Below, piece by piece: positions 23,853 through 39,119 of a stretch of 64,000 bases of DNA. Each line of letters starts with the position of its first letter. Position 1 is the first letter of the stretch. The stretch is from Escherichia phage LF82-4: the sequence record PV660448, one strand, 5' to 3'. The translations under genes were made by a program, and so were the position numbers. The notes under the pieces were generated by a model. That model did not search any database. It saw only the letters and a list, made by a program, of their open reading frames with translations, and was not told the origin of the DNA.

Positions 23853-23882
23853 CAAAAAAGCCCCAACCTTTCGGAAGGGGCT
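23853..23882 (-). terminator. intrinsic terminator (repeated 24-nt hairpin, copy 1)
   Basis: AGCCCCAACCTTTCGGAAGGGGCT with GNRA-type loop, followed on minus strand by UUUUUU. Confidence 0.6.
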
Positions 23883-23886
23883 TTGA

Positions 23887-24444
23887 TTAGTTTTTGTAAT
23901 ATCGTAAAGGGTTGATATGGAATGAAAGCATTGCGCGTGGAATAGGACGTCTCAAAAGACTCTTAAGTTTCCAACCACAGTAAACACGCAGATAAAATGT
24001 AATACCACCAACCTTAAGATAAGGTATAGCAGCGAATAATCCCCATGCAGACTCGTTCCAAACTAAAAGATATCCATGATGTGCTGGGTCAGGAGATCCT
24101 GATTTAGTTTCGGCGTTGCCTTTATAGTGCCATTTTGATGAAGCTTCGCGACCTAAAACATGATACGAAAAATTATATGCTTTGTTGCGCCATAACCAAG
24201 CTACGCGTTGAGCATATTTACCTATAACAGGAATTTTACGTATTTTAGACCAACGTTCAACATGGCCACGGTCACCATCGATAGGATTATCGTAAGTCAT
24301 CATCCAGTCAAAGCCATAAGGTAGTTTACCGGTTTTTTCACTATGGAATGGAACTACAAATGGTGCTAGAATAATTGCTAAAATCGCTGCGATCCAATCT
24401 ATAGGAACAAGAACAACCCAACTTACATATTTTAAAAATTTCAT
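23887..24444 (-). CDS. hypothetical membrane protein (T4 rI.-1 position)
   Basis: 185 aa; N-terminal transmembrane helices; own late promoter TATAAATA upstream and hairpin terminators on both sides. Confidence 0.55.
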   Translation of the reverse strand: MKFLKYVSWVVLVPIDWIAAILAIILAPFVVPFHSEKTGKLPYGFDWMMTYDNPIDGDRGHVERWSKIRKIPVIGKYAQRVAWLWRNKAYNFSYHVLGREASSKWHYKGNAETKSGSPDPAHHGYLLVWNESAWGLFAAIPYLKVGGITFYLRVYCGWKLKSLLRRPIPRAMLSFHINPLRYYKN

Positions 24445-24462
24445 ATATCCTCTCTTAGTTTA

Positions 24463-24470
24463 CAAGGATA
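24463..24470 (-). promoter_or_regulatory. late promoter TATAAATA for membrane protein gene 23887..24444
   Basis: Minus strand TATAAATA 19 nt upstream of ATG 24444. Confidence 0.55.
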
Positions 24471-24474
24471 TTTA

Positions 24475-24505
24475 TACAAAAAGCCCCAACCTTTCGGAAG
24501 GGGCT
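24475..24505 (-). terminator. intrinsic terminator (repeated 24-nt hairpin, copy 2)
   Basis: Identical 24-nt hairpin directly after rI stop, U tract follows. Confidence 0.6.
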
Positions 24506-24511
24506 AGTAAA

Positions 24512-24814
24512 TTAGATAGATGTAGGCTCTAATTTTATTTTCATGAACTCGGCAAATTGTCTGGCGGTTTTTATGCCTTGTTCATGACATTCAAATGCAT
24601 CATCACAGGGGCTATTTTTGTAATGCTTTGCCATATACTTATAGAATTTTTCAGAGTTCTCGACATTTTGAATTTCAAACAAAGTATATACGTTTTTAAT
24701 CCCTGATTCCATAAAGTTATCAAAGTATGGGTCAATATGTGCAGTACCAACGATAGGAGTTGTTGCTGCAAAAAACCCCAGCATCGCCATGACAGCTATC
24801 GCTCTTAAGGCCAT
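24512..24814 (-). CDS. rI: lysis inhibition regulator rI (antiholin)
   Basis: 100 aa; signal-anchor MALRAIAVMAMLGFF...; motifs DPYFDNFMESGI and KNSPCDD...C match T4 rI from memory. Confidence 0.8.
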   Translation of the reverse strand: MALRAIAVMAMLGFFAATTPIVGTAHIDPYFDNFMESGIKNVYTLFEIQNVENSEKFYKYMAKHYKNSPCDDAFECHEQGIKTARQFAEFMKIKLEPTSI

Positions 24815-24826
24815 ATAGGCCTCCTG

Positions 24827-25039
24827 TTAATTTTGGCCAGTATTTATTTTTCGCCTTTGGACGGCCTTAACATCTGTGAGGTATTTTTCCAGCTTGCGCT
24901 TGCGTGTATAATCAGCTTTAGAACCAGTTTGACGGATATCCTCGTTTAAATGAGAAATAGAATGTCCTAATTCTCTTCGGATTTCATCCAATTGGGTTAC
25001 AGTAAGATTACGAAGTTGTCTTTCGTTTAATTGCTGCAT
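24827..25039 (-). CDS. hypothetical protein (rI.1 position)
   Basis: 70 aa basic ORF between tk and rI. Confidence 0.45.
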
Positions 25040-25063
25040 ATATACCTCTTGGTTAGATATTAG

Positions 25064-25071
25064 TATTTATA
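25064..25071 (-). promoter_or_regulatory. late promoter TATAAATA upstream of rI.1/rI
   Basis: Minus strand TATAAATA 25 nt upstream of ORF 24827..25039. Confidence 0.5.
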
Positions 25072-25648
25072 ACAACCCTGTCAAATCATTCCAATGCTTC
25101 CGGCATAATGACACATATCTATCGGTATCACCAATTTCAATTTGACTGCCATCTGTAATTGGAAGTCCGTCTTCCGTGACTCTAGCTACCATTGTGGCCT
25201 TTTTACCACAATGACAGACACCTTTAAGTTCAACAAGCTTATCGGCAATAGCCATTAATGCTTGAGAACCTTCAAATAGATTACCTTTAAAATCTGTTCG
25301 TAGTCCATATGCCATTACCGGCACATTGTATACGTCAACAATACGACTAAGTTGATACACCTTTTCAGTAGTTAAGAACTGAGCTTCGTCAACAAATACG
25401 CAGTGAATATCCTTTTGTGCTGCAGCCCATTTATAGAATTCAAAGATATCCATGTCTTTTGTAATTATATTGGCATCCTGACGAATACCAATACGAGAGA
25501 CTATTTCACCTTTTGAATTACGAGTATCAATAGCCGGTTTAAGAACTAATACACCCATGCCACGTTCTTTATAGTTATGTGCGGCAGTAAGTAATGAAGC
25601 AGACTTACCAGCGTTCATAGCGGCATAGGTAAAAATTAAACTAGCCAT
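25067..25648 (-). CDS. tk: thymidine kinase
   Basis: 193 aa; P-loop AAMNAGKSASL; C-terminal zinc motif CHCGKKA...CRKH. Confidence 0.95.
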   Translation of the reverse strand: MASLIFTYAAMNAGKSASLLTAAHNYKERGMGVLVLKPAIDTRNSKGEIVSRIGIRQDANIITKDMDIFEFYKWAAAQKDIHCVFVDEAQFLTTEKVYQLSRIVDVYNVPVMAYGLRTDFKGNLFEGSQALMAIADKLVELKGVCHCGKKATMVARVTEDGLPITDGSQIEIGDTDRYVSLCRKHWNDLTGLL

Positions 25649-25838
25649 AAGAGTCCTTAGTTAAATTTTCTAAATATGTTTCTAAATCATTTTCAGCTTT
25701 ATTGATAGATTTTACTAATTCGTAGTATGTTTCGGCATCTCCATATTCAGAAGATATTTCAAAAGACAAATCCTTTTCTAAACTAATAATTTCACCAACT
25801 AAAAATAATATTTCGTTCTTTTGTTCGCGAGTAATCAT
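25641..25838 (-). CDS. hypothetical protein
   Basis: 65 aa acidic ORF. Confidence 0.4.
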   Translation of the reverse strand: MITREQKNEILFLVGEIISLEKDLSFEISSEYGDAETYYELVKSINKAENDLETYLENLTKDSYG

Positions 25839-26026
25839 AATGAATTTATATAATCAATAAGTTCTTGCTCTTTATCGTCAAAATCTTTACACAGTTCTTC
25901 GTATTCGTCAGTATTAAAAGGACCGCATTCATTACAAACTTTTTCCAATTCGCTATTTTTATCCATAACTTCGTGGATAAGAGAAAAGAGTTTGTCTTTT
26001 TGTTCTTTACTTAAACTCATAACCAT
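25835..26026 (-). CDS. hypothetical protein
   Basis: 63 aa acidic ORF. Confidence 0.4.
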   Translation of the reverse strand: MVMSLSKEQKDKLFSLIHEVMDKNSELEKVCNECGPFNTDEYEELCKDFDDKEQELIDYINSL

Positions 26027-26244
26027 GTCACCTTTAAACAGTATTCTTCTACATGCTGTTTACGACCTTTCTTATCAATAAAGGTATATTCAACGAATGT
26101 TCCAATGTAGTCTTTATCGACATCATGTGGACTATTAATTGGACATTTAGTACGACAAATGCGTTCCCATTGACGAATAATTACTGCTTTATTTTTAGGA
26201 TCAAACGGATGTGGGTAATGCACATTCATAATAATGGTTCCCAA
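26017..26244 (-). CDS. hypothetical protein
   Basis: 75 aa ORF. Confidence 0.4.
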   Translation of the reverse strand: MGTIIMNVHYPHPFDPKNKAVIIRQWERICRTKCPINSPHDVDKDYIGTFVEYTFIDKKGRKQHVEEYCLKVTWL

Positions 26245-26723
26245 TCAACAATCACAATTTCTAGTTTAGTGGAATATGTATCAAGAATTTCTTCAATGAT
26301 ATCCCAGTTTCCACCACCTATACCTGCACCAATTCTTGGCATGTAAATCACAGGCTTTGCTATCTTATTCTTTCCGAATTTATTTAATTCTATTATACAA
26401 TTCATTAAAGCAGAGTACTCAAAATTAGGTCCGGGCTCAAACTGTGTATAAAGATTAAAGCAATAAGCTTTATGGGTCTTAAAATATTTTTCATAAACCG
26501 AATAGGAACCGAGTTTAGACTCGTCTCCGAATTCGGTTTGAAGTTTATCGGCTTCTAAAATTTTTGGATAAGCCTTTGCTAATTGTCCTGCTACACCAGC
26601 GCCCATTGTATGAAAACAATTGCACCCATGAGCAATATTATTACCTTTAGAAAACAGGGCGACAATATCGCCCTTGATATAGTTTTTAATCACTTGCTGC
26701 AAGTCCTCTAGTATAAGAGTCAA
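26226..26723 (-). CDS. putative macro-domain-like protein (ADP-ribose binding/processing)
   Basis: 165 aa; glycine-rich motifs MGAGVAGQLAKAYP and PRIGAGIGGGNW resemble the two signature loops of macro domains; assignment by motif only. Confidence 0.45.
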   Translation of the reverse strand: MTLILEDLQQVIKNYIKGDIVALFSKGNNIAHGCNCFHTMGAGVAGQLAKAYPKILEADKLQTEFGDESKLGSYSVYEKYFKTHKAYCFNLYTQFEPGPNFEYSALMNCIIELNKFGKNKIAKPVIYMPRIGAGIGGGNWDIIEEILDTYSTKLEIVIVDWEPLL

Positions 26724-27033
26724 CTAGACGGTCCACCATAGAATTGCATGCTGCCTTATCTTTAGGTTCCGCCACCGAGCATTCTAATATTTGCCATTTT
26801 TTATAGTATCTTTTAATTAAGGTAGACGCCTTGAACCTACTAGACGCCCCATCTTTTTCTCCGTCTTTATATGCATATAACAATTTTTGTGAAAAATCTA
26901 CTTTACACTCTTGACTTTTACCACAATAATCAGACGCCGTTCTGTTTGTATACTCCGTTACATCAGTATATGTAGTATTAGCAAGAGCGTTAAATGAAAC
27001 CAAGCCAACTATTAAAGCCAACATTTTGGTCAT
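26686..27033 (-). CDS. hypothetical secreted protein (T4 vs position)
   Basis: 115 aa with N-terminal signal peptide MTKMLALIVGLVSFNALA; several cysteines. Confidence 0.45.
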   Translation of the reverse strand: MTKMLALIVGLVSFNALANTTYTDVTEYTNRTASDYCGKSQECKVDFSQKLLYAYKDGEKDGASSRFKASTLIKRYYKKWQILECSVAEPKDKAACNSMVDRLVDSYTRGLAASD

Positions 27034-27572
27034 TCTTTTATTTCCAGTAGTTTATTTGATTTAAGGTAATTAGCCTTTTCTAGGACTTCAGAAGCATATT
27101 TACTTCCAGCACTTGTCTTCCATCCAGCATTATATGAGGATATGGCTTTCCTTATATCCCCGTTATGTATATTTAACCAATAAGAAAATTCGATATAAGC
27201 CCATCTTGCTGAATTAGACCGCTTAGATAGCATTTTCTTAATTTGGGCATCAGTCATATTATAACCAAGCTGGTTAATTCTTGCCCTCATTGTTGGTAGA
27301 TAATTTTGGAACATTCCATACGCATGGTGACCTTTCTTATCTTTAAGATTAATACCGGCAGATGATTCCTGCCATAGTATTGCGGCCATTATGTATCCAA
27401 GTCCTTTCTTATGCATATTTTCATGCGTTTTAAATTTTCCATCCTTAGAAAACTGTTCCCCAAACTGATAAGCATAATTCAAGTTATCGAGTTGGACATT
27501 ACTAAAAGTATGCTCGGAGCTATGTGCTGATAACGAAAGAGCAAATAGACCAGCGAGTAGTGCTTTTCTCAT
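27030..27572 (-). CDS. putative periplasmic lytic transglycosylase
   Basis: Signal peptide MRKALLAGLFALSLSAHS; catalytic-type ES motif (ILWQESSAG) and AYNAG-like motif typical of SLT domains. Confidence 0.65.
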   Translation of the reverse strand: MRKALLAGLFALSLSAHSSEHTFSNVQLDNLNYAYQFGEQFSKDGKFKTHENMHKKGLGYIMAAILWQESSAGINLKDKKGHHAYGMFQNYLPTMRARINQLGYNMTDAQIKKMLSKRSNSARWAYIEFSYWLNIHNGDIRKAISSYNAGWKTSAGSKYASEVLEKANYLKSNKLLEIKE

Positions 27573-27580
27573 GTTTACCT

Positions 27581-28039
27581 CTAGATTTTAATCACTGCTT
27601 TAGAAGCTTTTCCTGGTAGTCGTTTACTGTTAATAATAGCCATTCTGCATTGAAGAGTCTTCATTTTGAATGCTGGATTTTCGCGACAAACTGTAAGTCC
27701 TAACCAAAGATTTCCATCAGTTATTTCTAAACGGCCTGGGCGATATTCGACACCTTCGACAAAATCTTCATCAACATCTGGACGTGCCGGCATTGATAAA
27801 AATTCTGCAACTTCTTTAGCATGATTTTTTACTTTATGAAATAATTCAAAAACGTAATTCTCATCTATTTCTCTCTGGATGGCACGATCTAAGAGATGTT
27901 GAGAATACTTGATATGAAAGCCTGGTAGTCCAAGAGACTTTGCAGCATCTTTTATACCGGCATTTATTTTGCGGAACTCCGTTTCAAAGATTCGACGGAG
28001 TTTATTACGGCGGATAAAAACTTCCGAATTGATAGTCAT
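27581..28039 (-). CDS. regB: endoribonuclease RegB
   Basis: Start MTINSEVFIRRNKLRR...; C-terminus LQCRMAIINSKRLPGKASKAVIK matches T4 RegB from memory. Confidence 0.9.
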   Translation of the reverse strand: MTINSEVFIRRNKLRRIFETEFRKINAGIKDAAKSLGLPGFHIKYSQHLLDRAIQREIDENYVFELFHKVKNHAKEVAEFLSMPARPDVDEDFVEGVEYRPGRLEITDGNLWLGLTVCRENPAFKMKTLQCRMAIINSKRLPGKASKAVIKI

Positions 28040-28095
28040 TTTGATTTCTCCTCTAGTTGACAAGTCTATAGTAACACAACTAGAGGAGAAGTAAA

Positions 28096-28395
28096 CTACT
28101 CTTTGAAAGGAATTAACTTTTTAACTGCTTTAGATACTTCGTCACGAACCTGATGGAAGTTCTTGAGCTGTTCAAGGCGTTGTTCGTAATACGCAATCTC
28201 ATCTTCTTCAAGACAATCGTCAGCGTCTTCTTTCAGATATGCCTTGTACTCATTAAAGAGGGCCCATAGGCGGTTCTCAAAGTCATCAAGGCTTTGAATT
28301 TTCTTGTGCTTCGGAACAAGGCCAAAAGGATTGCTTTCAGTTATGCGTCTAGATGCTTCATAATGAGTTCCAAAGCCTGATAGGATTTGAGCCAT
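28096..28395 (-). CDS. hypothetical protein
   Basis: 99 aa ORF. Confidence 0.45.
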
Positions 28396-28661
28396 TAGTA
28401 TTTTTCCTCAGGTCGAAATACTGCACGACAGGCCCACATGCTGGCTTCTTTTAGATGTTGCTTAGCATACTTAAGAGCCTGTACTGCATCCATATCTTCT
28501 TTGGTTTGTTGCTCTGTTTCATTTTCTTTCAAGATATATGCTTCTTCAATCAGAGCATCAAACAACAATCCAAGACGGACTTCTGCATCTTTAATAGCGT
28601 TCACTTTACCGATTTTATCGTCGGTATGCGGCTTGTAGCCTTTGATGTCTTCAATCGACAT
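28395..28661 (-). CDS. hypothetical small protein at T4 vs.4 (Acb2) position
   Basis: ORF track 28395..28829 truncated to ATG 28661 (GAGGAAA RBS); 88 aa helical protein; assignment by gene order after regB only. Confidence 0.35.
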
Positions 28662-28875
28662 AAGGAATTTCCTCATCGGTGACAAGGTCATATTCGACCA
28701 ATTGGATAGGCTCGTTAATACCATATCCACGTACAGTGATATCGGTTGTCGGATATTTTCCAGTAATATCACCCATTCTAAATGCTTCAGTGAATGATTG
28801 CTCACCTGAGCAACTAAACCAGGCGGCAAAACATTTTAAAACATCTTCAGACCCTTCTATAATCAATTTAGCCAT
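28651..28875 (-). CDS. hypothetical protein
   Basis: 74 aa acidic ORF. Confidence 0.4.
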   Translation of the reverse strand: MAKLIIEGSEDVLKCFAAWFSCSGEQSFTEAFRMGDITGKYPTTDITVRGYGINEPIQLVEYDLVTDEEIPYVD

Positions 28876-29237
28876 TATAGACTCTCAGTAAAGGTACGAG
28901 CGATAACGTCGCGCTGCTGTTCCGGAGTCAGAGAGTTAAAGCGAACTGCATAACCGGATACACGAATGGTCAGCTGAGGATATTTTTCCGGATGCTTAAC
29001 TGCATCTTCCAGAGTTTCACGACGCAGAACGTTAACGTTCAGGTGTTGACCACCTTCAATTTTAACTTTAGGTTGATGTTCAATTTCAATTTCACGGGCA
29101 TGTAAACCGTAGAAAATTTCCGGGTCTACAATAGCGTCTTCTTTAAAAGTCTTAGAGACGATAATCCGGGCTTGAGTACCATCTTCAAAATAAATAGTGC
29201 CTTTATGTACACCTTCAAGAATTTGATATGCTTTCAT
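28875..29237 (-). CDS. autonomous glycyl radical cofactor (GrcA/YfiD-like)
   Basis: 120 aa; C-terminal glycyl-radical motif [13 protein letters not shown] as in pyruvate formate-lyase C-terminus; T4 is known to encode such a homolog. Confidence 0.8.
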
Positions 29238-29243
29238 ATAACC

Positions 29244-29552
29244 TCAATTAGAAAATAAATTTATCCAAGTTTTTTCTTTAATCAAAAATGGGTCGGAATT
29301 AAACGCCATTAAACTTTGAGTGATTAATCCCTTAAACGGCCCATCAATAAATTCCATTTTGAAATGCGGAATACTAGTCATCAACCGTGCATTAGGAGCA
29401 GTACAAAGAACCTGCTGCCCCGCGAAAGGACCTTTAGTCAAACTGTATCGTTTAGGTTTAAAATGGTAAATCTCATAATTTTCTACAAGAGCCCTTTTAT
29501 TGCATACTGGGCTGTTATAACAATATTCAAAAACTTCAATAGTGGTCATCAT
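29244..29552 (-). CDS. hypothetical protein
   Basis: 102 aa ORF. Confidence 0.45.
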   Translation of the reverse strand: MMTTIEVFEYCYNSPVCNKRALVENYEIYHFKPKRYSLTKGPFAGQQVLCTAPNARLMTSIPHFKMEFIDGPFKGLITQSLMAFNSDPFLIKEKTWINLFSN

Positions 29553-30088
29553 TGCATTCCAATCACAAAAAATTGAGGACGAGCATTACCGCCGATGCAA
29601 TATTTGCTTTTGCAACAGTGTTGGACTGTTTTAATATGGACATTGTAAATCTTATCCATATCAGGAGCTTTAATAGGCTCGTCAATTATGTACAGAATAC
29701 GAGAAAGCGTTAATCCACGGAATTTAGAACCTTCATTGCCAATAAAACTACGGACAGAATCGGTAAATAAACGGAATCGAATATCATCGCTAGAATAACG
29801 AGAAAATTCTTTTTTAATGTTGCCAGCAGAAATTTTAGCATAGGCTGAAGTATTAGAAAGAACAATAACTGTTCCACCATCATACAGCCAATTAGCAGCA
29901 AAGTTAGTCACAGCAATTGATTTACCTGATTGTCGGCCGCCGTCTAAACGAAGTGTACAGTACTGCTTGAGTACGTCTTCAAACGGTGGGATATAACCGT
30001 TCTTACAAATTTCTTCTACTCTAGCATCAGAATGGTGTGTAAAAGCATTCATCAGGGATAGATAAGGTCCAGTTAAAAATGTTCTCAT
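29549..30088 (-). CDS. putative P-loop NTPase
   Basis: 179 aa; Walker A-like GGRQSGKS and Walker B-like ILYIIDEP. Confidence 0.45.
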   Translation of the reverse strand: MRTFLTGPYLSLMNAFTHHSDARVEEICKNGYIPPFEDVLKQYCTLRLDGGRQSGKSIAVTNFAANWLYDGGTVIVLSNTSAYAKISAGNIKKEFSRYSSDDIRFRLFTDSVRSFIGNEGSKFRGLTLSRILYIIDEPIKAPDMDKIYNVHIKTVQHCCKSKYCIGGNARPQFFVIGMQ

Positions 30089-30201
30089 TTAGTTTCTCTT
30101 TTAGGTTGGGCCATTCCGTGGCGCATGAATTGTCCATTTCTGTATTTACCCCTCTAAGTAATTATGAATATACTATCACAATTCTAGGAGAAAGTAAACT
30201 G

Positions 30202-30504
30202 TTATTTACCTTTAATTACTTTAGCTGCTTCGATAGCCGCTTGCTGAAGGTCATCCATAGACATACCGAATTTAGAAGCAAAGTTATCAATTTTCTTTTC
30301 GACAGCATTCAAAGGCTTGGCCTGTTTACCTTCATTAGCGCCAGGAAGAGCGAGAATACGCTCTTTGTCAATATAAAGGCTTACAAGTTTCTTACGGTCT
30401 TTATCGGACAAATCATGAAATGAATGGGCCTTTTTATTTATAGCGGCTTCTAATTTACCTGCACTCACTCGCGCTTCAGTAATAAATTCTTGATATGTTT
30501 TCAT
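30202..30504 (-). CDS. internal protein (capsid-targeting-sequence bearing)
   Basis: N-terminus MKTYQEFITEA matches the conserved capsid targeting sequence of T4 internal proteins IPI/IPII/IPIII. Confidence 0.65.
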   Translation of the reverse strand: MKTYQEFITEARVSAGKLEAAINKKAHSFHDLSDKDRKKLVSLYIDKERILALPGANEGKQAKPLNAVEKKIDNFASKFGMSMDDLQQAAIEAAKVIKGK

Positions 30505-30568
30505 TTTTTGTTTCCTTGTTTGTTTTGATAGAGTAATTATACCATATTAATACTTAAGCGTAAACAAT

Positions 30569-30829
30569 TTAAGCTTTACCGCCAGAAATAATTCCGAAGT
30601 TGTTAAAATCGTATCCAATATCGTCAACATCTACTTTAGGATTTACTACAACATAAGCAATTTCACTACGTTTTGCATAGGTGTTGATTTCTTTACCATC
30701 GCCACCTAAGAAAGAATACCCATTACGTTTTAATGAGCCAAAGTCTTCGGCATCACCAATGAAAGCTTTAACTTTAAATTTAGGACCTTTGGCATCTGCT
30801 TCAATGATAAATTCTTGATACATTTTCAT
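30569..30829 (-). CDS. internal protein (capsid-targeting-sequence bearing)
   Basis: N-terminus MKMYQEFIIEA. Confidence 0.65.
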   Translation of the reverse strand: MKMYQEFIIEADAKGPKFKVKAFIGDAEDFGSLKRNGYSFLGGDGKEINTYAKRSEIAYVVVNPKVDVDDIGYDFNNFGIISGGKA

Positions 30830-30835
30830 TTTTCC

Positions 30836-31249
30836 TTAGTAAATTGATTTACCATAGTATTTGTACCAAGTAGGACGTTGAGCAATTTTTTCATCTAAGC
30901 GTGCTTGACTTATCGCAACGGACGCTTCGGACGGGACATAATTATTACGAAATTCGGCAGGGATGTCGGAAATATCCTGGACTGTCGTGTCCTTGATTTT
31001 GAAACCACGTTTCAAGCATTCAGCGATTAGCTCGATTTGTCGTAAACGTAAAAATTCAAGTTTGTCGTAAAAGAATGTTACGTGACCTGTGCCTAAGATA
31101 AATGTTGGAGAGATTTTAAAATCCTTTACACGTTTACCGTTTTGGACATGTTTACGGACTGCACTAAATACGCGTGGTAATTCACGATACTCAGCCATAA
31201 GATGTTGATCGGTCAGTTCAGAAACAAGTGTTAAATTGATACGAGTCAT
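30836..31249 (-). CDS. denV: endonuclease V (pyrimidine dimer DNA glycosylase) DenV
   Basis: Start [28 protein letters not shown]; near-identical to T4 DenV from memory, 137 aa. Confidence 0.95.
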
Positions 31250-31307: not shown

Positions 31308-31589
31308 CTATTTTTCTGAAGCGCCTGAAATATATTTTTCAAGACGTTGTTTCATCAGCGAGCCGTTCTTAGCGATTTCTTCCGGTTTATCGCACATACG
31401 TAACAAGGCTTCAAGCTTAGCGATATCGCTGGTACGTTCAAATTTGCGAGTATCTATCTTACTAGCAAGTTCAGAAATACGTGCTAATAGACTTTCGGCT
31501 TCAACCAAAGCTGCACCTAGCTTAGTTGCAAATGTGTCAGTAGCTTCGTTAAGAATAGATTCTGATAAAAATTCACTATATGTTTTCAT
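31308..31589 (-). CDS. internal protein-like (capsid-targeting-sequence bearing)
   Basis: Start at [11 protein letters not shown] (ATG 31589). Confidence 0.6.
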
Positions 31590-32074
31590 ATATACGCTTT
31601 CCAAGTTCCTGTTTTAAATGTTGAGATTACGCGTTTCGCGCGATTAGGTGTCTGACGATACCATTTAGATTGGGCGAGATTTACTGCCGCTTCATCCCAA
31701 CGTTTCTGTTGAAGCATACGAAGAGAATTAGTAAAACCAGCAACGCCTGCTACACCCATTTGGAAGACCATATTGACCAATGCACATCGACGAACCGCGT
31801 CTAAAGAATCATATACCGGTTTAAGTTTAGCATTACCCAAGATTCCGCGAACGGCTTTATCGACGTCTTCGTTAAATAGCTTTTCAGCCTCATCAAGGGT
31901 AATTGTACCGTTGCATTTACGACCGATCATTCTGTCAAGTTCAGCTTTAGCTACGGCTAAAGACGGGTTCTTTGTTACTAAATGGCCTATGCCAATCGTC
32001 CAAAAGCCTTCAGTGTCTTTGTATAAAGTCAGTCTAAGACCTTCGTCATTACGAAGCATTTCAAATATATTCAT
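31586..32074 (-). CDS. e: endolysin (T4 lysozyme family)
   Basis: [28 protein letters not shown]; catalytic E11, D20, T26 context conserved; C-terminus differs from T4 lysozyme. Confidence 0.95.
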
Positions 32075-32108
32075 AATACCTCCCACGTTTATAGGAGGTA
32101 TTTATTAC

Positions 32109-32567
32109 TTATAGGATGGTAGTGAGCACCTTGTATAACGATTTGCCCATTACATATTCCCATTGAGAAGGTTTAATTAAAGCGAATGCATCAAATTCAG
32201 GAATCTGTCGTCCGTCTGGGAATGTATGATAGGAATTACAAACACTGTTTCTGAATTGCTCATGCTCTACAGGGATGGTATATAGGAACAGATGAATATT
32301 CTTATTGTCTGAGTAATGATGTTCACCTAGGTCTTTCAGGAAGGCAGGGTCATATTGTGTAAACCCAGTTTCTTCTTCGCATTCACGAATAGCGGCTTCA
32401 ATAGGAGATTCGCCAGGTTCGACACGGCCTTTAGGAATATCCCACCGATGAGCTAATGCACCTTTAGGACGAGAACCAGTTACACGACCCATGAATAATT
32501 CTTTATTTTCGGTAAGGAAAATAATACCGGCAGATAGTTCTTTCACTTTATTTTTCTTACTCATCAT
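32109..32567 (-). CDS. nudE: Nudix hydrolase NudE
   Basis: Nudix box GRVEPGESPIEAAIRECEEETGF; directly after lysozyme gene as T4 e.1. Confidence 0.85.
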   Translation of the reverse strand: MMSKKNKVKELSAGIIFLTENKELFMGRVTGSRPKGALAHRWDIPKGRVEPGESPIEAAIRECEEETGFTQYDPAFLKDLGEHHYSDNKNIHLFLYTIPVEHEQFRNSVCNSYHTFPDGRQIPEFDAFALIKPSQWEYVMGKSLYKVLTTIL

Positions 32568-32793
32568 CTCGGTCCCATGATTTGGCCATTAATTCAGACA
32601 TAAATTCTTCAATGCGCGTTTCTTTAGATGGACTTTCACTATTAGAGACCGCAAGTTTGTAATCTGCAATAGGACGGAACAAATCAAGGTCCATATTAAG
32701 ATCGTCTTTGATTTGTTCTTCAGATACGTCTTTATCATACGTATACAAATAACTATCACCCGATTCTGATTTAACGTAAATTGCTATGCTCAT
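32557..32793 (-). CDS. hypothetical protein
   Basis: 78 aa acidic ORF. Confidence 0.4.
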   Translation of the reverse strand: MSIAIYVKSESGDSYLYTYDKDVSEEQIKDDLNMDLDLFRPIADYKLAVSNSESPSKETRIEEFMSELMAKSWDRDDE

Positions 32794-33188
32794 CTCAAAT
32801 TCCTACATTCGGTAATAAAACGTTCAACTTCATTATTCTTGGCCTTTATCTTGTCTTTACGTTCCTGTAAACTACTTTTAACAAGATTAATAATGATGCC
32901 TATAGTACCTCCACCAATAATACCACCAATAATACTTACGATAGTAGATGCTAATAATATAGCGATAATATCTGGTATGGCAAAGGCACTTACTTTAGTA
33001 CTAAAAAACCATACCGACGGTACAAATATAATCCATCCTGTTATCCATTGGCACTTATTGAAAAACTTTTCAAGCTCAGCTTGAGTTGTTCTTATTACTT
33101 CATCGATAGGTTGATATCCATTAATGTATCTGTTCACGATAATACCTGCTGGCTGGTCGATTTTAAATTCTTGACAAATACGTTTCAC
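32790..33188 (-). CDS. hypothetical membrane protein
   Basis: 132 aa; central glycine/isoleucine-rich hydrophobic stretch. Confidence 0.45.
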   Translation of the reverse strand: MKRICQEFKIDQPAGIIVNRYINGYQPIDEVIRTTQAELEKFFNKCQWITGWIIFVPSVWFFSTKVSAFAIPDIIAILLASTIVSIIGGIIGGGTIGIIINLVKSSLQERKDKIKAKNNEVERFITECRNLR

Positions 33189-33269
33189 TAAGTAGGATGG
33201 ACATCCTGTCCAATCTACTGAATAGTACGAAATACCTTCATTACTTAGACCAATATGTTTTGTTAATCA

Positions 33270-33956
33270 TTACCAGCCTTCCATAGGGAATTCCAGATAA
33301 ACTTGAGCATTGACACGAATTTCATTGGTAATCTTTTTAACTCGGTCTGTATTACGAGATACACGTCCGAACCAACGCCATCCATTACTAATTGCACGAG
33401 AACCAGTGTGCCATGTTTGCCAATCAAACTGAAGAAGAGTACGGTCCGGAGCTTCCCATTTCTCTAGTTCACCTTTTTCAATTTTTTCGAGGACTTCTTT
33501 GTGCCATTGGCGATAGATAAGTTCGCCATCAGGAATCTGACTGAACTCTGCAGTTCCTGTTGCAAAATGAGTAGGACACACGTCAGCGTTAACAAGACCA
33601 AGAATATGTTCAGAATGGTAACGAGGGTTATCATAGTCAGGTTGTCCTGCAGTAATAAAGTGTTGGCCGACTGGAATATCAGGGCGAGGAACATCGTCAT
33701 GGTGATATCCAGGAATAGCAGGATACCAACCAGGCATCAGCATATGAACCCGAGAATCAAATACAACATGTTGATTAGTCCAATCAATTGGGAGATTGGC
33801 AATAAAGCTACGAGTAATAGGACCGCCGTTATCCCAAGCAAAACTCAAATCACAGTTAAAGAACATTGGTTCATTTTTGATTTGGTCATTTTGTACGTTA
33901 TGAGCAAAACCACCTACTGCGCGAGCTTGACTATTAAACACTTTAGAACTATTCAT
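33270..33956 (-). CDS. hypothetical protein (His/Asp-rich, possible metal-dependent enzyme)
   Basis: 228 aa; HHDD and later His residues plus R-x-S near C-terminus could form a 2-His-1-carboxylate site; speculative. Confidence 0.45.
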   Translation of the reverse strand: MNSSKVFNSQARAVGGFAHNVQNDQIKNEPMFFNCDLSFAWDNGGPITRSFIANLPIDWTNQHVVFDSRVHMLMPGWYPAIPGYHHDDVPRPDIPVGQHFITAGQPDYDNPRYHSEHILGLVNADVCPTHFATGTAEFSQIPDGELIYRQWHKEVLEKIEKGELEKWEAPDRTLLQFDWQTWHTGSRAISNGWRWFGRVSRNTDRVKKITNEIRVNAQVYLEFPMEGW

Positions 33957-33957
33957 A

Positions 33958-34263
33958 TTATTTTCCTCGACATTCTTTAATGAAATTTTCTAGATTGGTA
34001 GATTCAATAGCTTTTTTACGAGCTTCTGCATGTTCTTCTTCAGACAATTTACATTTATAATTAACCCAGACGTTATGGTCAAAACTAGTCGTGGCATATA
34101 ATAACAATGCTCCAACGAATAGCAAAAACGGCGATAAGAATACAAAACCAGGAACACCATCCATATCGTAAGCCTTTTGTAATACTGCAACAGAAAGGGC
34201 TGCGTAAAAAGGTGATGCAAATATTGTTAAAAGACCAATTCGGTTGGTTTCGCCTAATTTCAT
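33958..34263 (-). CDS. hypothetical membrane protein
   Basis: 101 aa, two hydrophobic helices; own early promoter upstream. Confidence 0.45.
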   Translation of the reverse strand: MKLGETNRIGLLTIFASPFYAALSVAVLQKAYDMDGVPGFVFLSPFLLFVGALLLYATTSFDHNVWVNYKCKLSEEEHAEARKKAIESTNLENFIKECRGK

Positions 34264-34292
34264 AATATTCTCCTCATGTTTTTAATAGGACT

Positions 34293-34322
34293 ACTATAAC
34301 ATAGTCCTATAATTGTGTAAAC
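34293..34322 (-). promoter_or_regulatory. early sigma70-type promoter with flanking inverted repeat
   Basis: Minus strand GTTTAC -18- TATAGT; arms ATAGGACT/AGTCCTAT around the -10. Confidence 0.5.
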
Positions 34323-34334
34323 AGTTTTGTGAAG

Positions 34335-35291
34335 TTATTTGAAAGGTTTTACCATATGGAAATTTTGTTTGAAACGTTTGACGTAATCATTTTTGCCGAG
34401 CTTATGATACATAGCCACTACTTCATAATAGTTCTCGTATGCGTACTCACGGAACCATCCGGAGGTGATGCTTGTACAGACTTTTTCCAATGCCATCATA
34501 AAACTGGCTTCAGGGTTAATTTTAAAGTTATTAGGAATCTGAGAACGTTCTAATGCTAATACACATGATTCTTCGTATACACCGGCCAATTTGACCATTT
34601 CTGGTAATGATTCGAACTTCTCGCGTGAGGTCATGACTTCAGAACCATCTTTCATATAAAATGTATACGCTGGACGGTCTGTTAGTGCAATGGCTTCATG
34701 AATAGTATCATGGTCATATGTATAGATGTCATCTTTAAAGAACGCACTTTTAGAAGTGTCAAGAACCGGGTGAGCATAGTTCAAAGTTTCTTTCTGGCGT
34801 TTCAACATAATTTCAGTAAGTTCATCGTTCAGTGTAACACCTTTACCACGAAGATACTGAATATGGTTCATAGTCTTTAAAAAGAATGGATTATTTTTCT
34901 TGAAACGATGAGACATCTTAATTGCAAGACATATCTCAGGAGTTGCCCAGTAAAACCCAGTCAAACGGTCTTTAGTCAAATTTTTCTTGGCGTATTTTAA
35001 AAGGTCATAAGAAGATGTGAAATCTTCAGGAGTGAGTTCACCGACTAATTCACGGACATTAGTGATTGCCGGAACAATATATGCTTCAAAATGAGTTTCA
35101 CGTCCATTATGGAAGCATTTGAAAACTTGGACATCAGGGTTATCTTGGTGAACATATACACCCATCATTTGATTTTTGAATACATTCCAAGAACCTTGGT
35201 CCGCAATAAAGTCCCAATCACTATTTTTGATAGCGCTAGAATCAATAAGGCCATGGTAGTGAAGTGCACGAGAACCAATAACTAACATCAT
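34335..35291 (-). CDS. hypothetical protein
   Basis: 318 aa; N-terminal IGSRALHYHG...SDWDFIAD weakly resembles a nucleotidyltransferase GS...DxD motif. Confidence 0.5.
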   Translation of the reverse strand: MMLVIGSRALHYHGLIDSSAIKNSDWDFIADQGSWNVFKNQMMGVYVHQDNPDVQVFKCFHNGRETHFEAYIVPAITNVRELVGELTPEDFTSSYDLLKYAKKNLTKDRLTGFYWATPEICLAIKMSHRFKKNNPFFLKTMNHIQYLRGKGVTLNDELTEIMLKRQKETLNYAHPVLDTSKSAFFKDDIYTYDHDTIHEAIALTDRPAYTFYMKDGSEVMTSREKFESLPEMVKLAGVYEESCVLALERSQIPNNFKINPEASFMMALEKVCTSITSGWFREYAYENYYEVVAMYHKLGKNDYVKRFKQNFHMVKPFK

Positions 35292-35316
35292 AATATTTTC
35301 CTCGAATTTAGATTAC

Positions 35317-35556
35317 TTAAATTTCGCGACATGCGATATTATATTCATCCCAGAGGTCGTCATGTGAAGCCTCTACCAATGGAACGATTGTACCATTTAT
35401 ATCTTCATTATAAGGGCAAATTGTACAGTGCGCATCTTCGAATCGGATGCCTTTGTGTTCAGATTTTTTATAACGCATATCGAATATCTTTGCAAACTTT
35501 TCACGAGTAATAGTTTTAGCAACTACTTCGGTTCCTATACTTTCGTAATAAACCAT
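35317..35556 (-). CDS. hypothetical cysteine-containing protein
   Basis: ORF track 35317..35568; ATG 35556 with GGAG RBS. Confidence 0.4.
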   Translation of the reverse strand: MVYYESIGTEVVAKTITREKFAKIFDMRYKKSEHKGIRFEDAHCTICPYNEDINGTIVPLVEASHDDLWDEYNIACREI

Positions 35557-35618
35557 TGTTGTCTCCATTTAATTTGATAGGACTACTATAACATAGCCCT
35601 ATCTTGTTGTAAACTGTT

Positions 35619-35816
35619 TTAGCAAGAATAACTAGATGATACCCAGCCTTGAACAGTGATACTATTGTGGGATAATGAGATCGCGTCCTGGAGATTCAGA
35701 CCTGCATTATCTTCAATCCACAATGTAACTTCTTCACGCTCTTCGGTTGCAATCTGGAACAGGTTTTCTAGAGCAGCTACGGCCGTACGTACAGCACAAT
35801 CTAATTCACGAGACAT
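35619..35816 (-). CDS. small protein, paralog family member 3 (C-terminal WVSSSYSC)
   Basis: 65 aa; shares C-terminal motif with two upstream ORFs. Confidence 0.45.
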   Translation of the reverse strand: MSRELDCAVRTAVAALENLFQIATEEREEVTLWIEDNAGLNLQDAISLSHNSITVQGWVSSSYSC

Positions 35817-35825
35817 ATGATTTCC

Positions 35826-36098
35826 TTAACAAGTGTGAGAAGATGCAACCCAACCACCAGTTTCGAGGCTCAGGTTGTAGTCGTATTGGTAAACGTCAGC
35901 CCATTCGGCATAACCGTTTTTTGTACAACGTTCAAGATCGGCTTTAAGATGTCCGGGTGAATGATAGGTTCCACCCATACCATAAGCTGGGTACAAGTTG
36001 AATGTTGTGTTTTGTTTATCAGCAATTTCTTTGGCAGCCTCAATAGCTGCATAGATTTTTGCTACAGCTTCAGCCAGTTCGGTTTGTTCTTTAGACAT
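35826..36098 (-). CDS. small protein, paralog family member 2 (C-terminal GGWVASSHTC)
   Basis: 90 aa; starts MSKEQ; shares architecture with 36108..36413. Confidence 0.5.
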   Translation of the reverse strand: MSKEQTELAEAVAKIYAAIEAAKEIADKQNTTFNLYPAYGMGGTYHSPGHLKADLERCTKNGYAEWADVYQYDYNLSLETGGWVASSHTC

Positions 36099-36107
36099 AA
36101 TGATTCC

Positions 36108-36413
36108 TTAGCACAACGCAGAAGATGAAACCCAAGCACCTTCAGTAATAACGTATCCATTACCTTCACGCTTAACATCGCCGCCATTATTTTCAATTTC
36201 ATCTTTCATCCACTGGGATACGATTTCACCCTTAGGATAATAAGTACGACCGCTACCATAATCACCTACAGAAAATGATACGGCATATTGGTCTGCGATC
36301 TTTGTTGCTTCTTCTTCGATACGTTCAGCTTGATTCAGAAGTTTATAAATTGCATCTGAAGCGGATTTGGCATCATTAAACTCTGGTACTTTAATTTCAA
36401 TAATCTTACTCAT
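36108..36413 (-). CDS. small protein, paralog family member 1 (C-terminal GAWVSSSALC)
   Basis: 101 aa; starts MSKII; early-type promoter just upstream. Confidence 0.5.
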   Translation of the reverse strand: MSKIIEIKVPEFNDAKSASDAIYKLLNQAERIEEEATKIADQYAVSFSVGDYGSGRTYYPKGEIVSQWMKDEIENNGGDVKREGNGYVITEGAWVSSSALC

Positions 36414-36511
36414 TTTCTACATTCCTTAATAAAGTTTTCGATTGTTTCATTTTCACGTTTAGCTAGGAGTTCATTATAACTAATCATTTGAGAAGCGTAA
36501 ACAGCATAAAT

Positions 36512-36934
36512 TCAGTTAAGGCTTTTGCATCTTATTTCCTTAACGAATTCCATAGCTTCTTCATATTCATACTTTTTAACAGCTTCATCATACTGAGCTT
36601 GGGCTTTTGCGCACTGAACTTTCCATTCTCTTAATCGGGCTCTGTGATGACGGCCTTGGTACCAATATCCCATCCAGTTAATAGGCATTAATAAAAATGG
36701 TACAATAAGTGGTGCGACGAACATTAATGAAAATGCTGCATCAGACGATATAACTTCACTAGAATCTAAAACGGCTCCTATAATCATAAAGATTAAAAAT
36801 GCTAAAGCTAAAATAGGGCCAAATAGTACTTCATTTGGGATTAATTTACGCTTGTATTCATACGCCCAGGGCTTACTTGGCATGTACAGGGTTGGCTTTG
36901 ACATATTCTCTACATTCCATAATAAATTGCTCAA
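36512..36934 (-). CDS. hypothetical membrane protein
   Basis: 140 aa, two or three transmembrane helices followed by charged tail. Confidence 0.45.
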   Translation of the reverse strand: MSNLLWNVENMSKPTLYMPSKPWAYEYKRKLIPNEVLFGPILALAFLIFMIIGAVLDSSEVISSDAAFSLMFVAPLIVPFLLMPINWMGYWYQGRHHRARLREWKVQCAKAQAQYDEAVKKYEYEEAMEFVKEIRCKSLN

Positions 36935-37475
36935 GGATTAAATTGTTAGTGAAATTAGGACTAACAACCATAGTTTCATAAAGCGCATCAATAGCACTTA
37001 AAGCATCAACTCTCTTAAGCAAAGGCTTGCCTTCATACATAGTTTCAGAATCGACGATTAACGTAAAGTAGTATTTTTTATTATCGACTAGAACTTCTGT
37101 ATCGATATAAAACATATTAGACCTCAGAAGCTTATCTCTAAAACCATAATAATCTTCAGAGCGTTCGCTGATATATTCCCATTCAGTGTTTAAACAACAA
37201 ACAGACCACGTAGGAGCAACGAAATCAGTGAATCTAATATCATAGTCTGCAACTAGTTTAGCAATAGCTCCGATATCATGAATCATAATACCTGGGGCTA
37301 ATAAAGATTTTCTGCTATGGCTAGCCGTTTTCTCAGTGGTTTCATAAGAAGACGACCAATACCATTTACGTCCGGTTGCAACATATCGTAATGAATCAAC
37401 TAAAGACGTAGGTGGATTTACCTTATCTCGGAACTCTTCGAACATTGAGTCAATATCATTATTTTGGTTTCGCAT
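36873..37475 (-). CDS. hypothetical protein
   Basis: ORF track 36873..37496; ATG 37475 with AAAGGAG RBS. Confidence 0.5.
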   Translation of the reverse strand: MRNQNNDIDSMFEEFRDKVNPPTSLVDSLRYVATGRKWYWSSSYETTEKTASHSRKSLLAPGIMIHDIGAIAKLVADYDIRFTDFVAPTWSVCCLNTEWEYISERSEDYYGFRDKLLRSNMFYIDTEVLVDNKKYYFTLIVDSETMYEGKPLLKRVDALSAIDALYETMVVSPNFTNNLILEQFIMECREYVKANPVHAK

Positions 37476-37524
37476 GTTAACTCCTTTATTATCCAAAAGG
37501 AGGACCGGAGTCCTCCGTATTATT

Positions 37525-38118
37525 TTATTTCAAAGAGTTAATATATTCTTGTACATCAGCAGAAGTGGTTTCGACACCGGCTGGAGTGCCATTGAACGTT
37601 TCAACACGAGTCAGAGTGTCTTCGATATCAACCTTAGTCAGTGCAGCGATTTCAATCACATCATCAGCCGTAGAGATACCAAGGGCATTGGCTGCTCGAG
37701 TTTCACGAATGTATTCGAGTTTGATTGCCAGGTTCTGACGAGCATCATCAAGTTCAACCACCTTACGAGCAATTTCAATTCGCATAGCGGCATACCCATC
37801 AGCTTTTGTATTAAGTTGTTCGGCAGTTCGACGATACAGAAGACCAAGCTTAGCATGCATGGTAACATCTTGTCCTTCAGCCAGGAGCTTACGAATTTCA
37901 CGTTCCTTAGAAGCGGCTTGCTTGTTCTTTTCATTAACAAGTTCGCGAATACGTTTTTCTTCATTAATAGATTTAACAGAAGCCGTTTTTAGTTCTTTGA
38001 TTTGGGTAATCAACTTATCTGCAGCTGCGTTATACTGTTCTTCGACAGTCAGATTTTTAGCCATAGCAGTACCCAGTTTAGTGCGGATGAATTCAACAAG
38101 TTTCTTCAGTGTGTTCAT
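37525..38118 (-). CDS. hypothetical coiled-coil protein (PspA-like composition)
   Basis: ORF track 37525..38133; ATG 38118; long heptad-repeat helices; driven by the duplicated 45-nt promoter cassette. Confidence 0.5.
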
Positions 38119-38142
38119 ATTATTACCTTTCAATTGGTGGTT

Positions 38143-38187
38143 TATTATCCAACGAGAGCATTATACTCTGCTCTCAAGAGTTTGTAA
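38143..38187. repeat. 45-nt exact repeat, copy 2 (promoter cassette)
   Basis: Identical to 8200..8244. Confidence 0.9.
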
Positions 38188-38191
38188 ATTA
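38162..38191 (-). promoter_or_regulatory. early-type promoter inside duplicated 45-nt cassette (copy 2)
   Basis: Minus strand ATTTACA -17- TATAAT; identical core to copy at 8200..8244. Confidence 0.5.
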
Positions 38192-38416
38192 TTTTTTAAT
38201 CAAATTGACATAAAACTTGGCATCTTCGGGGTGCATGCCTTCGCAGTATTCTTCAACCATGAACTTCTTAACAGCTTCATAAGGACCACTCAGATTAAGC
38301 TCAGTTGTCCAGAACTTGGAATCTTGTACTGAATCGATACGAACTTCAGGGTGACGGTTGCGAATAACTTCTTCTGTGTATTCATAATCAACGACATCAA
38401 TACTAACTTTAGCCAT
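38189..38416 (-). CDS. hypothetical protein
   Basis: 75 aa acidic ORF. Confidence 0.4.
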   Translation of the reverse strand: MAKVSIDVVDYEYTEEVIRNRHPEVRIDSVQDSKFWTTELNLSGPYEAVKKFMVEEYCEGMHPEDAKFYVNLIKK

Positions 38417-38645
38417 TTTGTTTTCCTCTTGATTTGATGTGATTACTATAACATAAACTTACTTAGATGTAAACTATTTCAACATCACCTTTAGCTGCTT
38501 TATAACCTTCGGCCCAAGATACAACAGAGTTTTTATCTGAGGATTCAAATTCAGGCATTGGACTTTCACCAATATTCACACAGTATGTTTCTTCATTTTC
38601 ATCGAACCAAATAATTAAAGTAGTCATTTTGTTTACTCCACTGTA

Positions 38646-38666
38646 GTTGATAAGTCTATAGTATCA
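38646..38666. repeat. 21-nt repeat, copy 1
   Basis: GTTGATAAGTCTATAGTATCA identical at 38646..38666 and 39018..39038, both in promoter regions. Confidence 0.85.
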
Positions 38667-38695
38667 CCATCCTTGGTGCTTGTACATCATTATTT

Positions 38696-39001
38696 TTAAT
38701 TTTTCCAACTTAACAACTTGTAGTGTCCTTCATTCGTACGAGGTTTATCCCAATAGATATTAATAAACGATGTCTCACCAATAGAAGTCGGCGGTTTTTT
38801 CTCTACAGTAAGACCTTCGCTTTCTAACCACTCAATGACTTTTGTAGATAAAGCTAAAGAAACATGTAATGGACAACGACAGTATTTTTCACCTTTAGCT
38901 GAAGACTCGTACATCATTTCTAAAATACGTTTTTGCACTTTTTTAAAAATAGTTTCAGCAGATTCTTCAGATTTTTTATTCAGTTCAGTGTAAAGACTCA
39001 T
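38696..39001 (-). CDS. hypothetical protein
   Basis: 101 aa; CRCP motif; GGAG RBS. Confidence 0.45.
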   Translation of the reverse strand: MSLYTELNKKSEESAETIFKKVQKRILEMMYESSAKGEKYCRCPLHVSLALSTKVIEWLESEGLTVEKKPPTSIGETSFINIYWDKPRTNEGHYKLLSWKN

Positions 39002-39017
39002 AATATTCTCCTCTGCG

Positions 39018-39038
39018 GTTGATAAGTCTATAGTATCA
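39018..39038. repeat. 21-nt repeat, copy 2
   Basis: Identical to 38646..38666. Confidence 0.85.
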
Positions 39039-39087
39039 TGTCCTTAGAAGAAGTAAACAACTTTTTAAACTTTTTCTGCCCTAGATA

Positions 39088-39117
39088 CCAAAAAGCCCCA
39101 ACCTTTCGGAAGGGGCT
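39088..39117 (-). terminator. intrinsic terminator (repeated 24-nt hairpin, copy 3)
   Basis: Identical 24-nt hairpin at 3-prime end of tRNA-like RNA region, U tract follows. Confidence 0.6.
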
Positions 39118-39119
39118 AA

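Follow-up and report, generated by a model that had tools for sequence, protein, structure and literature searches.

The DNA analysed here, a 64,000-nucleotide (nt) stretch of Escherichia phage LF82-4 (sequence record PV660448; hereafter the window), belongs to a Mosigvirus, a T4-like coliphage (Straboviridae, Tevenvirinae), and carries a short hairpin-forming repeat in three identical copies. Two of them, hairpins A and B, sit next to the lysis-inhibition gene rI, and the third, hairpin C, follows the stable-RNA gene rnaC; the genes at both loci are on the minus strand, as are the hairpins and promoters described with them. In the direction of transcription, the rI locus comprises tk, an rI.1-like open reading frame (ORF), rI, hairpin B, a gene for a DUF7338 protein, hairpin A, and small mobD.x-like ORFs. 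The second locus runs from tRNA-Met through a SegB homolog, rnaD, rnaC, and hairpin C to an early-type promoter and an ORF of 101 amino acids (aa).

Architecture of the rI and rnaC loci

The antiholin or lysis-inhibition regulator gene rI (24512..24814) was assigned from the annotation of phages LF82-9, ChristianSchoenbein, and Mizar, and by tblastn. It is followed by hairpin B with its U5 tract (24478..24505), which sequence match, fold, and relatives mark as the predicted rI terminator and as the proximal of two direct repeats. Only 2 nt past the U-tract of copy B lies the T4 late-promoter motif TATAAATA (24469..24476), recognized from its sequence and placed 24 nt before the ATG of the DUF7338 gene, with a ribosome-binding site (RBS) in between. 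The gene itself (23887..24444; 185 aa) matches Pfam PF24027 (E = 9e-62) and phrog_2143. Hairpin A with its U6 tract (23854..23882), the distal direct repeat, is the predicted terminator of the DUF7338 gene, judging from the match and a folding energy of −17.9 kcal/mol. An early sigma-70/T4-type promoter (TTTACT, 16 nt, TATAGT with TG; 23815..23842), reported by a promoter scan and belonging to repeat families D5/D6, lies about 12 nt past copy A.

At the second locus, the homolog of rnaC (T4 species 1 RNA; 39168..39306) is 100% identical over 139 nt to RB10 rnaC, and the homolog of rnaD (T4 species 2 RNA; 39314..39430) is 91% identical to RB10 rnaD. The surrounding stretch, window positions 39080-39434, shows 92-95% identity to Tequatroviruses, in which rnaC and rnaD are annotated. 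Neither RNA matched an Rfam family at gathering thresholds, and an Rfam scan of the whole window returned tRNA alone. Hairpin C with its U5 tract (39090..39117) is, on the grounds of match, fold, and orthology, the predicted terminator of the tRNA/rnaD-rnaC stable-RNA operon. Roughly 32 nt past copy C and ahead of the 101-aa ORF (38696-39001) comes an early-type promoter (GTTTAC ... TACTAT; 39030..39058) that was recognized by its sequence and its membership in repeat families D3/D5/D6; a generic scan did not report it.

Three copies of one predicted terminator

The 24-mer AGCCCCAACCTTTCGGAAGGGGCT has exactly three exact copies in the window, read on the plus strand at 23859-23882, 24482-24505, and 39094-39117. 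No fourth copy was found in the window with up to three mismatches allowed, and the chance expectation from 100 dinucleotide shuffles is 0. When the adjoining A-run is included, the exact repeat spans 28 nt for the pairs A-B and A-C and 30 nt for B-C. The minus-strand RNA of each copy reads GCCCCUUCC-GAAA-GGUUGGGGC and continues directly 3′ of the stem into a U-tract (U6 at copy A, U5 at copies B and C). It folds into a GC stem of six base pairs (bp) that a 2x2 U.U internal loop separates from two C-G bp capped by a GAAA tetraloop, with energies of −16 to −18 kcal/mol and z-scores of −2.4 to −3.5 relative to shuffled sequences. Because a simple terminator scan needs an uninterrupted stem, and the internal loop breaks this one, such a scan overlooks the hairpin. 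A separate scan found six further plausible minus-strand terminators in the window, each of differing sequence; the three-fold identity is thus specific to the sites of copies A, B, and C.

All three copies stand in sense orientation just past the end of a transcription unit: 5 nt past the DUF7338 stop codon (A), 7 nt past the rI stop codon (B), and 50 nt past the annotated 3′ end of rnaC (C). This anatomy, together with the orthology of copy C to the rnaC terminator of T4 and RB10 (see below), makes it a well-supported prediction that they act as Rho-independent terminators. An earlier note, made from the window's letters alone, had drawn attention to three identical 24-nt terminators, two of them bracketing a membrane protein gene driven by a late promoter beside rI, and these readings hold: the matches are exact, the bracketed ORF has TATAAATA upstream and a hydrophobic segment at the N-terminus of its product, and the terminator label agrees with position, U-tract, and orthology. 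Its picture of a GC-rich stem with a GAAA loop and a U-tract agrees with the fold, except that the stem is interrupted by the 2x2 internal loop. No paper mapping RNA 3′ ends at this hairpin turned up in the literature.

To follow the repeat through relatives, we searched 50,697 phage genomes for exact matches with BLAST. The exact hairpin (at least 28 nt) occurred at 223 places in 166 records, all of them Escherichia/Shigella-type T4-like phages, and none of the genomes seen in this census had more than three places. Wherever seen, the hairpin was confined to the rI and rnaC loci, always in the same orientation and directly after a gene end. Beyond the census, the copy count covers the window and the first 105.5 kb of LF82-9, and no additional copy was found in the latter. 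Scans of IMG/VR with the rI flank and the rnaC flank gave three and eight loci, respectively. A degenerate scan of the same database with AAAGCCCCNNCCNNNNGGNNGGGGCT gave, among the matches listed, unrelated phages; the AAAGCCCC..GGGGCTTT shape seen there is a common terminator form. At orthologous positions, the loops differ (GAAA, UUAU, UUAC, UAAA, and UUUC), and the GNRA loop is, as far as these homologs tell, not a conserved feature.

The rI slot is filled in some Mosigviruses and empty in others

When window positions 23000-25500 were compared with phage genomes, 195 records matched, of which 22 did so with full coverage; the rest aligned in two pieces with 76% coverage. The piece absent from the gene-less relatives is exactly a 623-bp unit (23859..24481) consisting of one hairpin, the late promoter, and the DUF7338 gene, as alignment with ChristianSchoenbein and Mizar shows and as the copy spacing of 623 (repeat family D9) also indicates; its ends are ambiguous inside the 28-nt repeat. 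In most Mosigviruses this unit is missing and one hairpin marks exactly this junction; in ChristianSchoenbein, Mizar, LF82-41, Av-05, phiE142, and a metagenomic contig (L072) a single hairpin joins rI directly to the early promoter. By contrast with these empty slots, two hairpins were present in all four further gene-carrying phages (KMB38, PHB12, TH58, and AV109), in each case at the rI slot, with a point change in one hairpin loop of AV109. Hairpin A was present in all gene-carrying relatives examined, and copies of the DUF7338 gene at 95% identity or more were found in 22 phage records only.

Two observations bear on how the two copies and the unit between them have evolved. In KMB38, the upstream flank of the distal copy, TCAAA, stands in place of TTTACTA at the proximal copy (equivalent to window positions 24506-24512), whereby the repeat is lengthened to 36 nt; at the level of sequence, this exchange of flanks is an apparent gene-conversion tract between the copies. 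Moreover, identity to the window in the flanks is 98-99.5% for LF82-41 and Mizar, which lack the gene, and 93-98% for KMB38, PHB12, and AV109, which carry it. Gene-less flanks being closer than gene-carrying ones, cassette presence does not track local phylogeny.

The rI terminator of every Mosigvirus examined has the same imperfect stem, GCCCCUUCC...GGUUGGGGC, with its two U.U mismatches. Past the U-tract, the rI and rnaC hairpins of Mosigviruses also have about 10 nt of common flank, GG[C/T]ATCTA (repeat family D9). Shared destabilizing mismatches and shared flanks argue that the hairpin was copied between the loci and did not arise by convergence. The idea that the hairpins at rI and rnaC evolve strictly in concert was considered and rejected, since loops differ between the two loci in phiE142, Mizar, and ChristianSchoenbein (GAAA versus UUAU/UUAC). 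The rI slot of the Tequatrovirus RB51 holds an unrelated gene, rI.-1, with an unrelated end hairpin, AGUCUCC-UUCG-GGAGACU. The T4 gene rI.-1 was tried as a homolog of the DUF7338 gene, and no similarity was found.

The literature searched contained no paper on DUF7338. In a few Felixounavirus records, DUF7338 homologs are labelled ‘holin’ or ‘putative holin’. The DUF7338 gene of the window has a late-promoter motif and directly adjoins the antiholin gene rI.

The rnaC terminator is a second slot for the same gene

Copy C can be placed by comparison with the T-even phages. The T4 and RB10 hairpin GCCCCGACCGAAAGGTTGGGGC is orthologous to it, with a flank that is 93% identical, and in T4, RB10, and KAW1E185 the hairpin reads GCCCCGACC-GAAA-GGUUGGGGC-U5 at the same position and between the same flanks. 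Both forms share the pattern GCCCC-NN-CC-GAAA-GGUUGGGGC-U5 and differ in the dinucleotide at stem positions 6-7: GA in the T4-type hairpin, which thereby has a fully paired 9-bp stem of −21.5 kcal/mol, versus UU in copy C, which leaves two mismatches and −17.2 kcal/mol. Mosigvirus and Gaprivervirus hairpins likewise have UU. On the evidence of aligned position and flanks, copy C is the ortholog of the T-even rnaC terminator.

Homologs of the DUF7338 gene were found by tblastn at 559 places in 553 phage records, essentially one per genome, and no genome seen had the gene at both slots. In Gaprivervirus (phage RZ and, from IMG/VR, the similar contig L004), the rnaC hairpin, identical to that of the window, and a late promoter immediately precede a 76% homolog. 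In the Dhakaviruses MX01 and EcWhh-1, the gene again stands behind rnaC, here between two identical hairpins GGCCCUUCCGAAAGGUUGGGCC and with the same promoter motif, GTATAAATA; their homologs are about 75% identical to the window gene, as in Gaprivervirus. The Dhakavirus hairpin, GGCCCUUCC-GAAA-GGUUGGGCC, differs from that of the window by a compensatory swap of C-G to G-C, and downstream of the distal hairpin of MX01 comes a homolog of the early promoter that follows copy C. In STP4-a and RB16, the gene is located just downstream of the tRNA cluster.

The same position also receives another gene. An unrelated late-promoter gene, phrog_2280, lies behind the rnaC hairpin in KAW1E185, ChristianSchoenbein, LF82-9, phiE142, and IMG/VR loci, and where the cassette could be read through (KAW1E185, ChristianSchoenbein, and LF82-9) it ends in a hairpin of the same family. 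In EcWhh-1, both cassettes are present in tandem with a hairpin between them, and in T4, RB10, and the window the rnaC slot is without a cassette. The rnaC terminator is, by this comparison, a general cassette slot whose occupancy is 0, 1, or 2 among the phages examined.

Some details of these cassettes are recorded here as well. In KAW1E185 (L014), the cassette-end hairpin (806-832) shares its palindromic stem with the rnaC hairpin (249-275) and has a reverse-complemented loop (UUUC, not GAAA), as would be expected from hairpin inversion or from recombination between inverted copies. The phrog_2280 protein begins with MK[ST]Y.[EQ]F, which resembles what we take to be the targeting sequence of T4 internal proteins. 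The SegB homolog upstream of rnaD is a GIY-YIG ORF (39781-40449, minus strand) with 76% identity to the T4 protein found at this position beside rnaD, presumably SegB according to the map of T4; local gene conversion and mosaicism could owe something to a homing endonuclease so close to the rnaC slot.

Terminators as probable homology linkers for cassette exchange

We propose that intrinsic terminators of the rnaC family probably double as short homology linkers for the gain, loss, and relocation of insulated cassettes. One hairpin family would terminate the rnaC unit and, in Mosigviruses, rI too. Joined to an immediately following promoter—early after A and C, late after B—the hairpin would form a compact junction of terminator and promoter, of the type described for the PeSL elements discussed below. 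Since the hairpin sequence is identical at several places, it could serve as a linker of 28-30 nt for the active recombination of T4. A self-contained cassette with late promoter, RBS, and DUF7338 gene, which in related genera normally stands directly behind the rnaC terminator, would in the lineage of the window have moved behind the identical hairpin at rI, which would leave a hairpin on each side, and the same direct repeats would permit later loss of the cassette. By analogy with PeSLs, the route may have been excised mini-circles and single crossovers, or else double crossovers between co-infecting phages. What can be read from the compared genomes is the indel, the use of two alternative slots by one gene, the bracketing by hairpins, and the KMB38 tract; termination in vivo and the recombination pathway are the parts of this proposal that we infer.

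The closest published parallel is the PeSL of T4-type phages, in which an early promoter, a Shine-Dalgarno sequence, and an ATG come directly after a stem-loop terminator (Arbiol et al. 2010, PMC2839356; Comeau et al. 2014, PMC4122927). PeSLs are concentrated in hyperplastic regions, on either side of ORFs in which close relatives differ, and when tandem PeSLs recombine, the ORF between them is deleted and mini-circles arise; a version with a middle promoter, PmSL, has also been described (PMC2839356, PMC4122927). The window resembles these systems in its repeated G/C-rich stem-loops (GGGG...CCCC type), in a small accessory ORF that would be transcriptionally insulated, in the 623-bp indel exactly at the hairpin, and in the variable cassettes at the rnaC slot. 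Copy A is followed by TTTACT, 16 nt, and TATAGT, and copy C by TTTACT, 16 nt, and TACTAT. The hexamers after copy C agree with the PST/T4 PeSL consensus, TTTACW and TAYWAT, and the spacer is 16 nt here versus N17 as published (PMC4122927). The differences are that copy B is followed by the late promoter TATAAATA and not by an early one, that the bracketing repeat is the stem-loop alone (28-30 nt) with late promoters inside and early ones outside, and that the window hairpin copies the terminator of a stable-RNA operon. A late-promoter PeSL was not found in PMC2839356 or PMC4122927, nor elsewhere in the searchable literature.

Lambdoid morons, defined as single extra genes with their own promoter and terminator (Hendrix et al. 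2000, as relayed in PMC2839356), offer a second comparison. Like a moron, the DUF7338 gene is an extra gene between neighbors that adjoin each other in relatives, with what appear to be its own promoter and terminator motifs. It departs from morons in that it is not unusual in base composition (38.4% GC versus a window mean of 37.2%, standard deviation 2.4%; in 30% of windows of equal size the GC content is as high or higher), in that it has a phage late promoter where morons are expressed from the prophage, and in that the gene is co-oriented with its neighbors and conserved terminator linkers seem to target the insertion site. We regard the arrangement as a late-promoter, stem-loop-only variant of PeSL/moron shuffling and not as a new class of element. 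A further link leads to T4 itself: according to Mosig et al. 1998, as summarized in PMC2839356, half of 13 deletions of small non-essential ORFs in T4 involve GGGC, sometimes paired with GCCC in inverted orientation. The same stem motif occurs here, and the microhomology at a Gaprivervirus indel (see below) begins with GGGC; the deletions in that summary differ in being laboratory deletions from another region, genes 56 to dda.

Integron attC sites provide an analogy in that single-gene cassettes each end in an imperfect hairpin and number 0, 1, or 2 at a fixed slot. The differences are that window-type cassettes carry their own late promoter and that the hairpin is a predicted transcription terminator. 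No integrase is listed in the LF82-9 annotation tables, which cover part of that record, and no search aimed at integrases was made. A stronger form of the analogy would make the imperfect GCCC...GGGC hairpin, with its conserved T.T/A.A mismatches, a folded-DNA recombination signal for a phage factor, and the slots attachment sites for the exchange of late-gene cassettes (DUF7338, internal-protein-like). This version we hold to be very unlikely; were it true, such a folded-DNA signal system would be a functional analogue of integron attC/attI built from a transcription terminator.

Several findings weigh against the linker proposal. No donor allele more than 80% identical to the DUF7338 gene was sampled at another site in the 553 records. 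The Gaprivervirus cassette ends distally in a different hairpin (AGCCCGCAUUGCGGGCU in L004), and in a gene-less relative (L007) the rnaC hairpin meets the distal flank across the 13-nt microhomology GGGCTTTTTTATA; an indel of this kind does not depend on having the same hairpin at both ends. Of the gene-less phages, those closest to the window, LF82-41 and Mizar, have a UUAU loop and are therefore not simple deletion products of the window arrangement. Among ten hairpin variants, covariation amounted to one compensatory pair, which was equalled or beaten in 94 of 500 shuffles and is not significant. Finally, the stem carries a 2x2 internal loop, which may affect the efficiency of termination.

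Weighing alternative explanations

Linker function has to be set against simpler accounts of the identity. The copies could be ordinary terminators whose sameness is a by-product of one insertion that duplicated the rI terminator, added to an ancestral similarity with that of rnaC. Illegitimate recombination at a terminator would likewise duplicate the hairpin, the Gaprivervirus indel needs just its 13-nt microhomology, and the 22 gene-carrying records could stem from one event. We nevertheless think this rather unlikely, as the bracket recurs with other genes, with hairpin variants, and in other genera, the DUF7338 gene is found in alternative slots that are both hairpin-marked, and neither the KMB38 conversion tract nor the incongruence between cassette presence and flank similarity suits a single insertion. 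Independent convergence of three strong terminators on one sequence is barely conceivable: GC-clamp stems with GNRA loops are indeed a favored terminator design, but the copies have U.U mismatches and flanking bases in common, the edges of the indel fall exactly at the hairpin, and the chance expectation is 0. Identical short palindromes at several loci might also recall an autonomous element, a ‘mobile terminator’ inserting alone in the manner of a miniature inverted-repeat transposable element. The census makes this highly improbable, with at most three places in any genome seen, each of them at the rI or the rnaC slot, in the sense direction and after a gene end, and there are neither target-site duplications nor copies elsewhere. 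The earlier note's suggestion of a mobile terminator cassette is borne out in one half: a mobile unit does exist, namely the late promoter with the DUF7338 gene; of this unit the hairpin forms the boundary and probable linker, and on its own it is neither a multi-copy nor an autonomous element.

The note had also raised a shared protein-binding or RNA-processing site, and neither is needed to explain the identity. In its fuller form, this idea would have the hairpin, as folded DNA or RNA, recognized by a dedicated protein (for instance an RNase, an RNA chaperone, or a factor for recombination or homing), and termination would come second. The inner stem CCUUCC-GAAA-GGUUGG is constant in Mosigvirus, Gaprivervirus, and Dhakavirus despite the compensatory swap in the outer stem, and both slots lie near homing-endonuclease territory (the SegB homolog at 39781-40449, and the mobD region beside rI in T4 relatives). 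A protein binding GGGC/GCCC stem-loops has moreover been speculated upon by Arbiol et al. 2010 (PMC2839356) and, as relayed there, by Mosig et al. 1998. Yet the free variation of the loop at orthologous sites speaks against recognition of the loop itself, the two bases at mid-stem pair in Tequatrovirus and are mismatched in the window, no candidate protein was identified, and position and U-tract are fully explained by termination. We consider a dedicated recognition site unlikely.

If the hairpins do act as homology linkers, the two slots would be a clean natural example of how accessory genes move in T4-like phages, with one hairpin and two alternative landing sites. Depending on the genus, the same gene is found at either slot, and the rI slot is both filled and empty in near-identical phages of the LF82 series. 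The proposal would extend the PeSL idea to late-promoter cassettes and to the stem-loop alone as a linker, and would tie it to the older observation on GGGC/GCCC deletions in T4. The matched phage pairs allow direct tests of hairpin-mediated excision and integration and of the function of DUF7338 beside rI.

Mosaicism and further repeats in the window

The two loci differ in their relationship to LF82-9. The rI region of the window is 100% identical to that phage, likewise a Mosigvirus, whereas its tRNA/rnaC region differs, with one tRNA (tRNA-Met) in the window versus ten in LF82-9. In LF82-9 (144800-147300), the rnaC hairpin is of the Tequatrovirus type (GCCCCGACC...), and the inserted cassette ends in GCCCCAGCC.... 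The best database match to window positions 38000-41000 had 95.6% identity in four pieces, and the contiguous arrangement of this region was found in no database record matched.

Early promoters are themselves repeated between 18 and 46 kb of the window, where families D1-D6 have 4-8 copies each; copies A and C of the hairpin lie directly upstream of members of the same early-promoter family. Families D1/D2 comprise six or seven copies of an early-promoter cassette of 52-72 nt (23333-23404, 34261-34332, 35553-35624, 38413-38484, 41490-41561, 41870-41941, and 42241-42292), in which the −10 region falls within a palindrome (TAGGACTA...TAGTCCTA) downstream of GTTTAC. They constitute another family resembling PeSLs, located in the same hyperplastic regions.

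Five gene starts on the minus strand (30475-30504, 30800-30829, 31560-31589, 41842-41871, and 42193-42222) have a common 5′ coding sequence for MKTYQEF..., and the phrog_2280 gene starts alike. We take MKTYQEF... to be the capsid-targeting sequence of T4 internal proteins. In the stretch of LF82-9 that matches window positions of about 30.2-31.6 kb, three genes are annotated as internal head or virion proteins.

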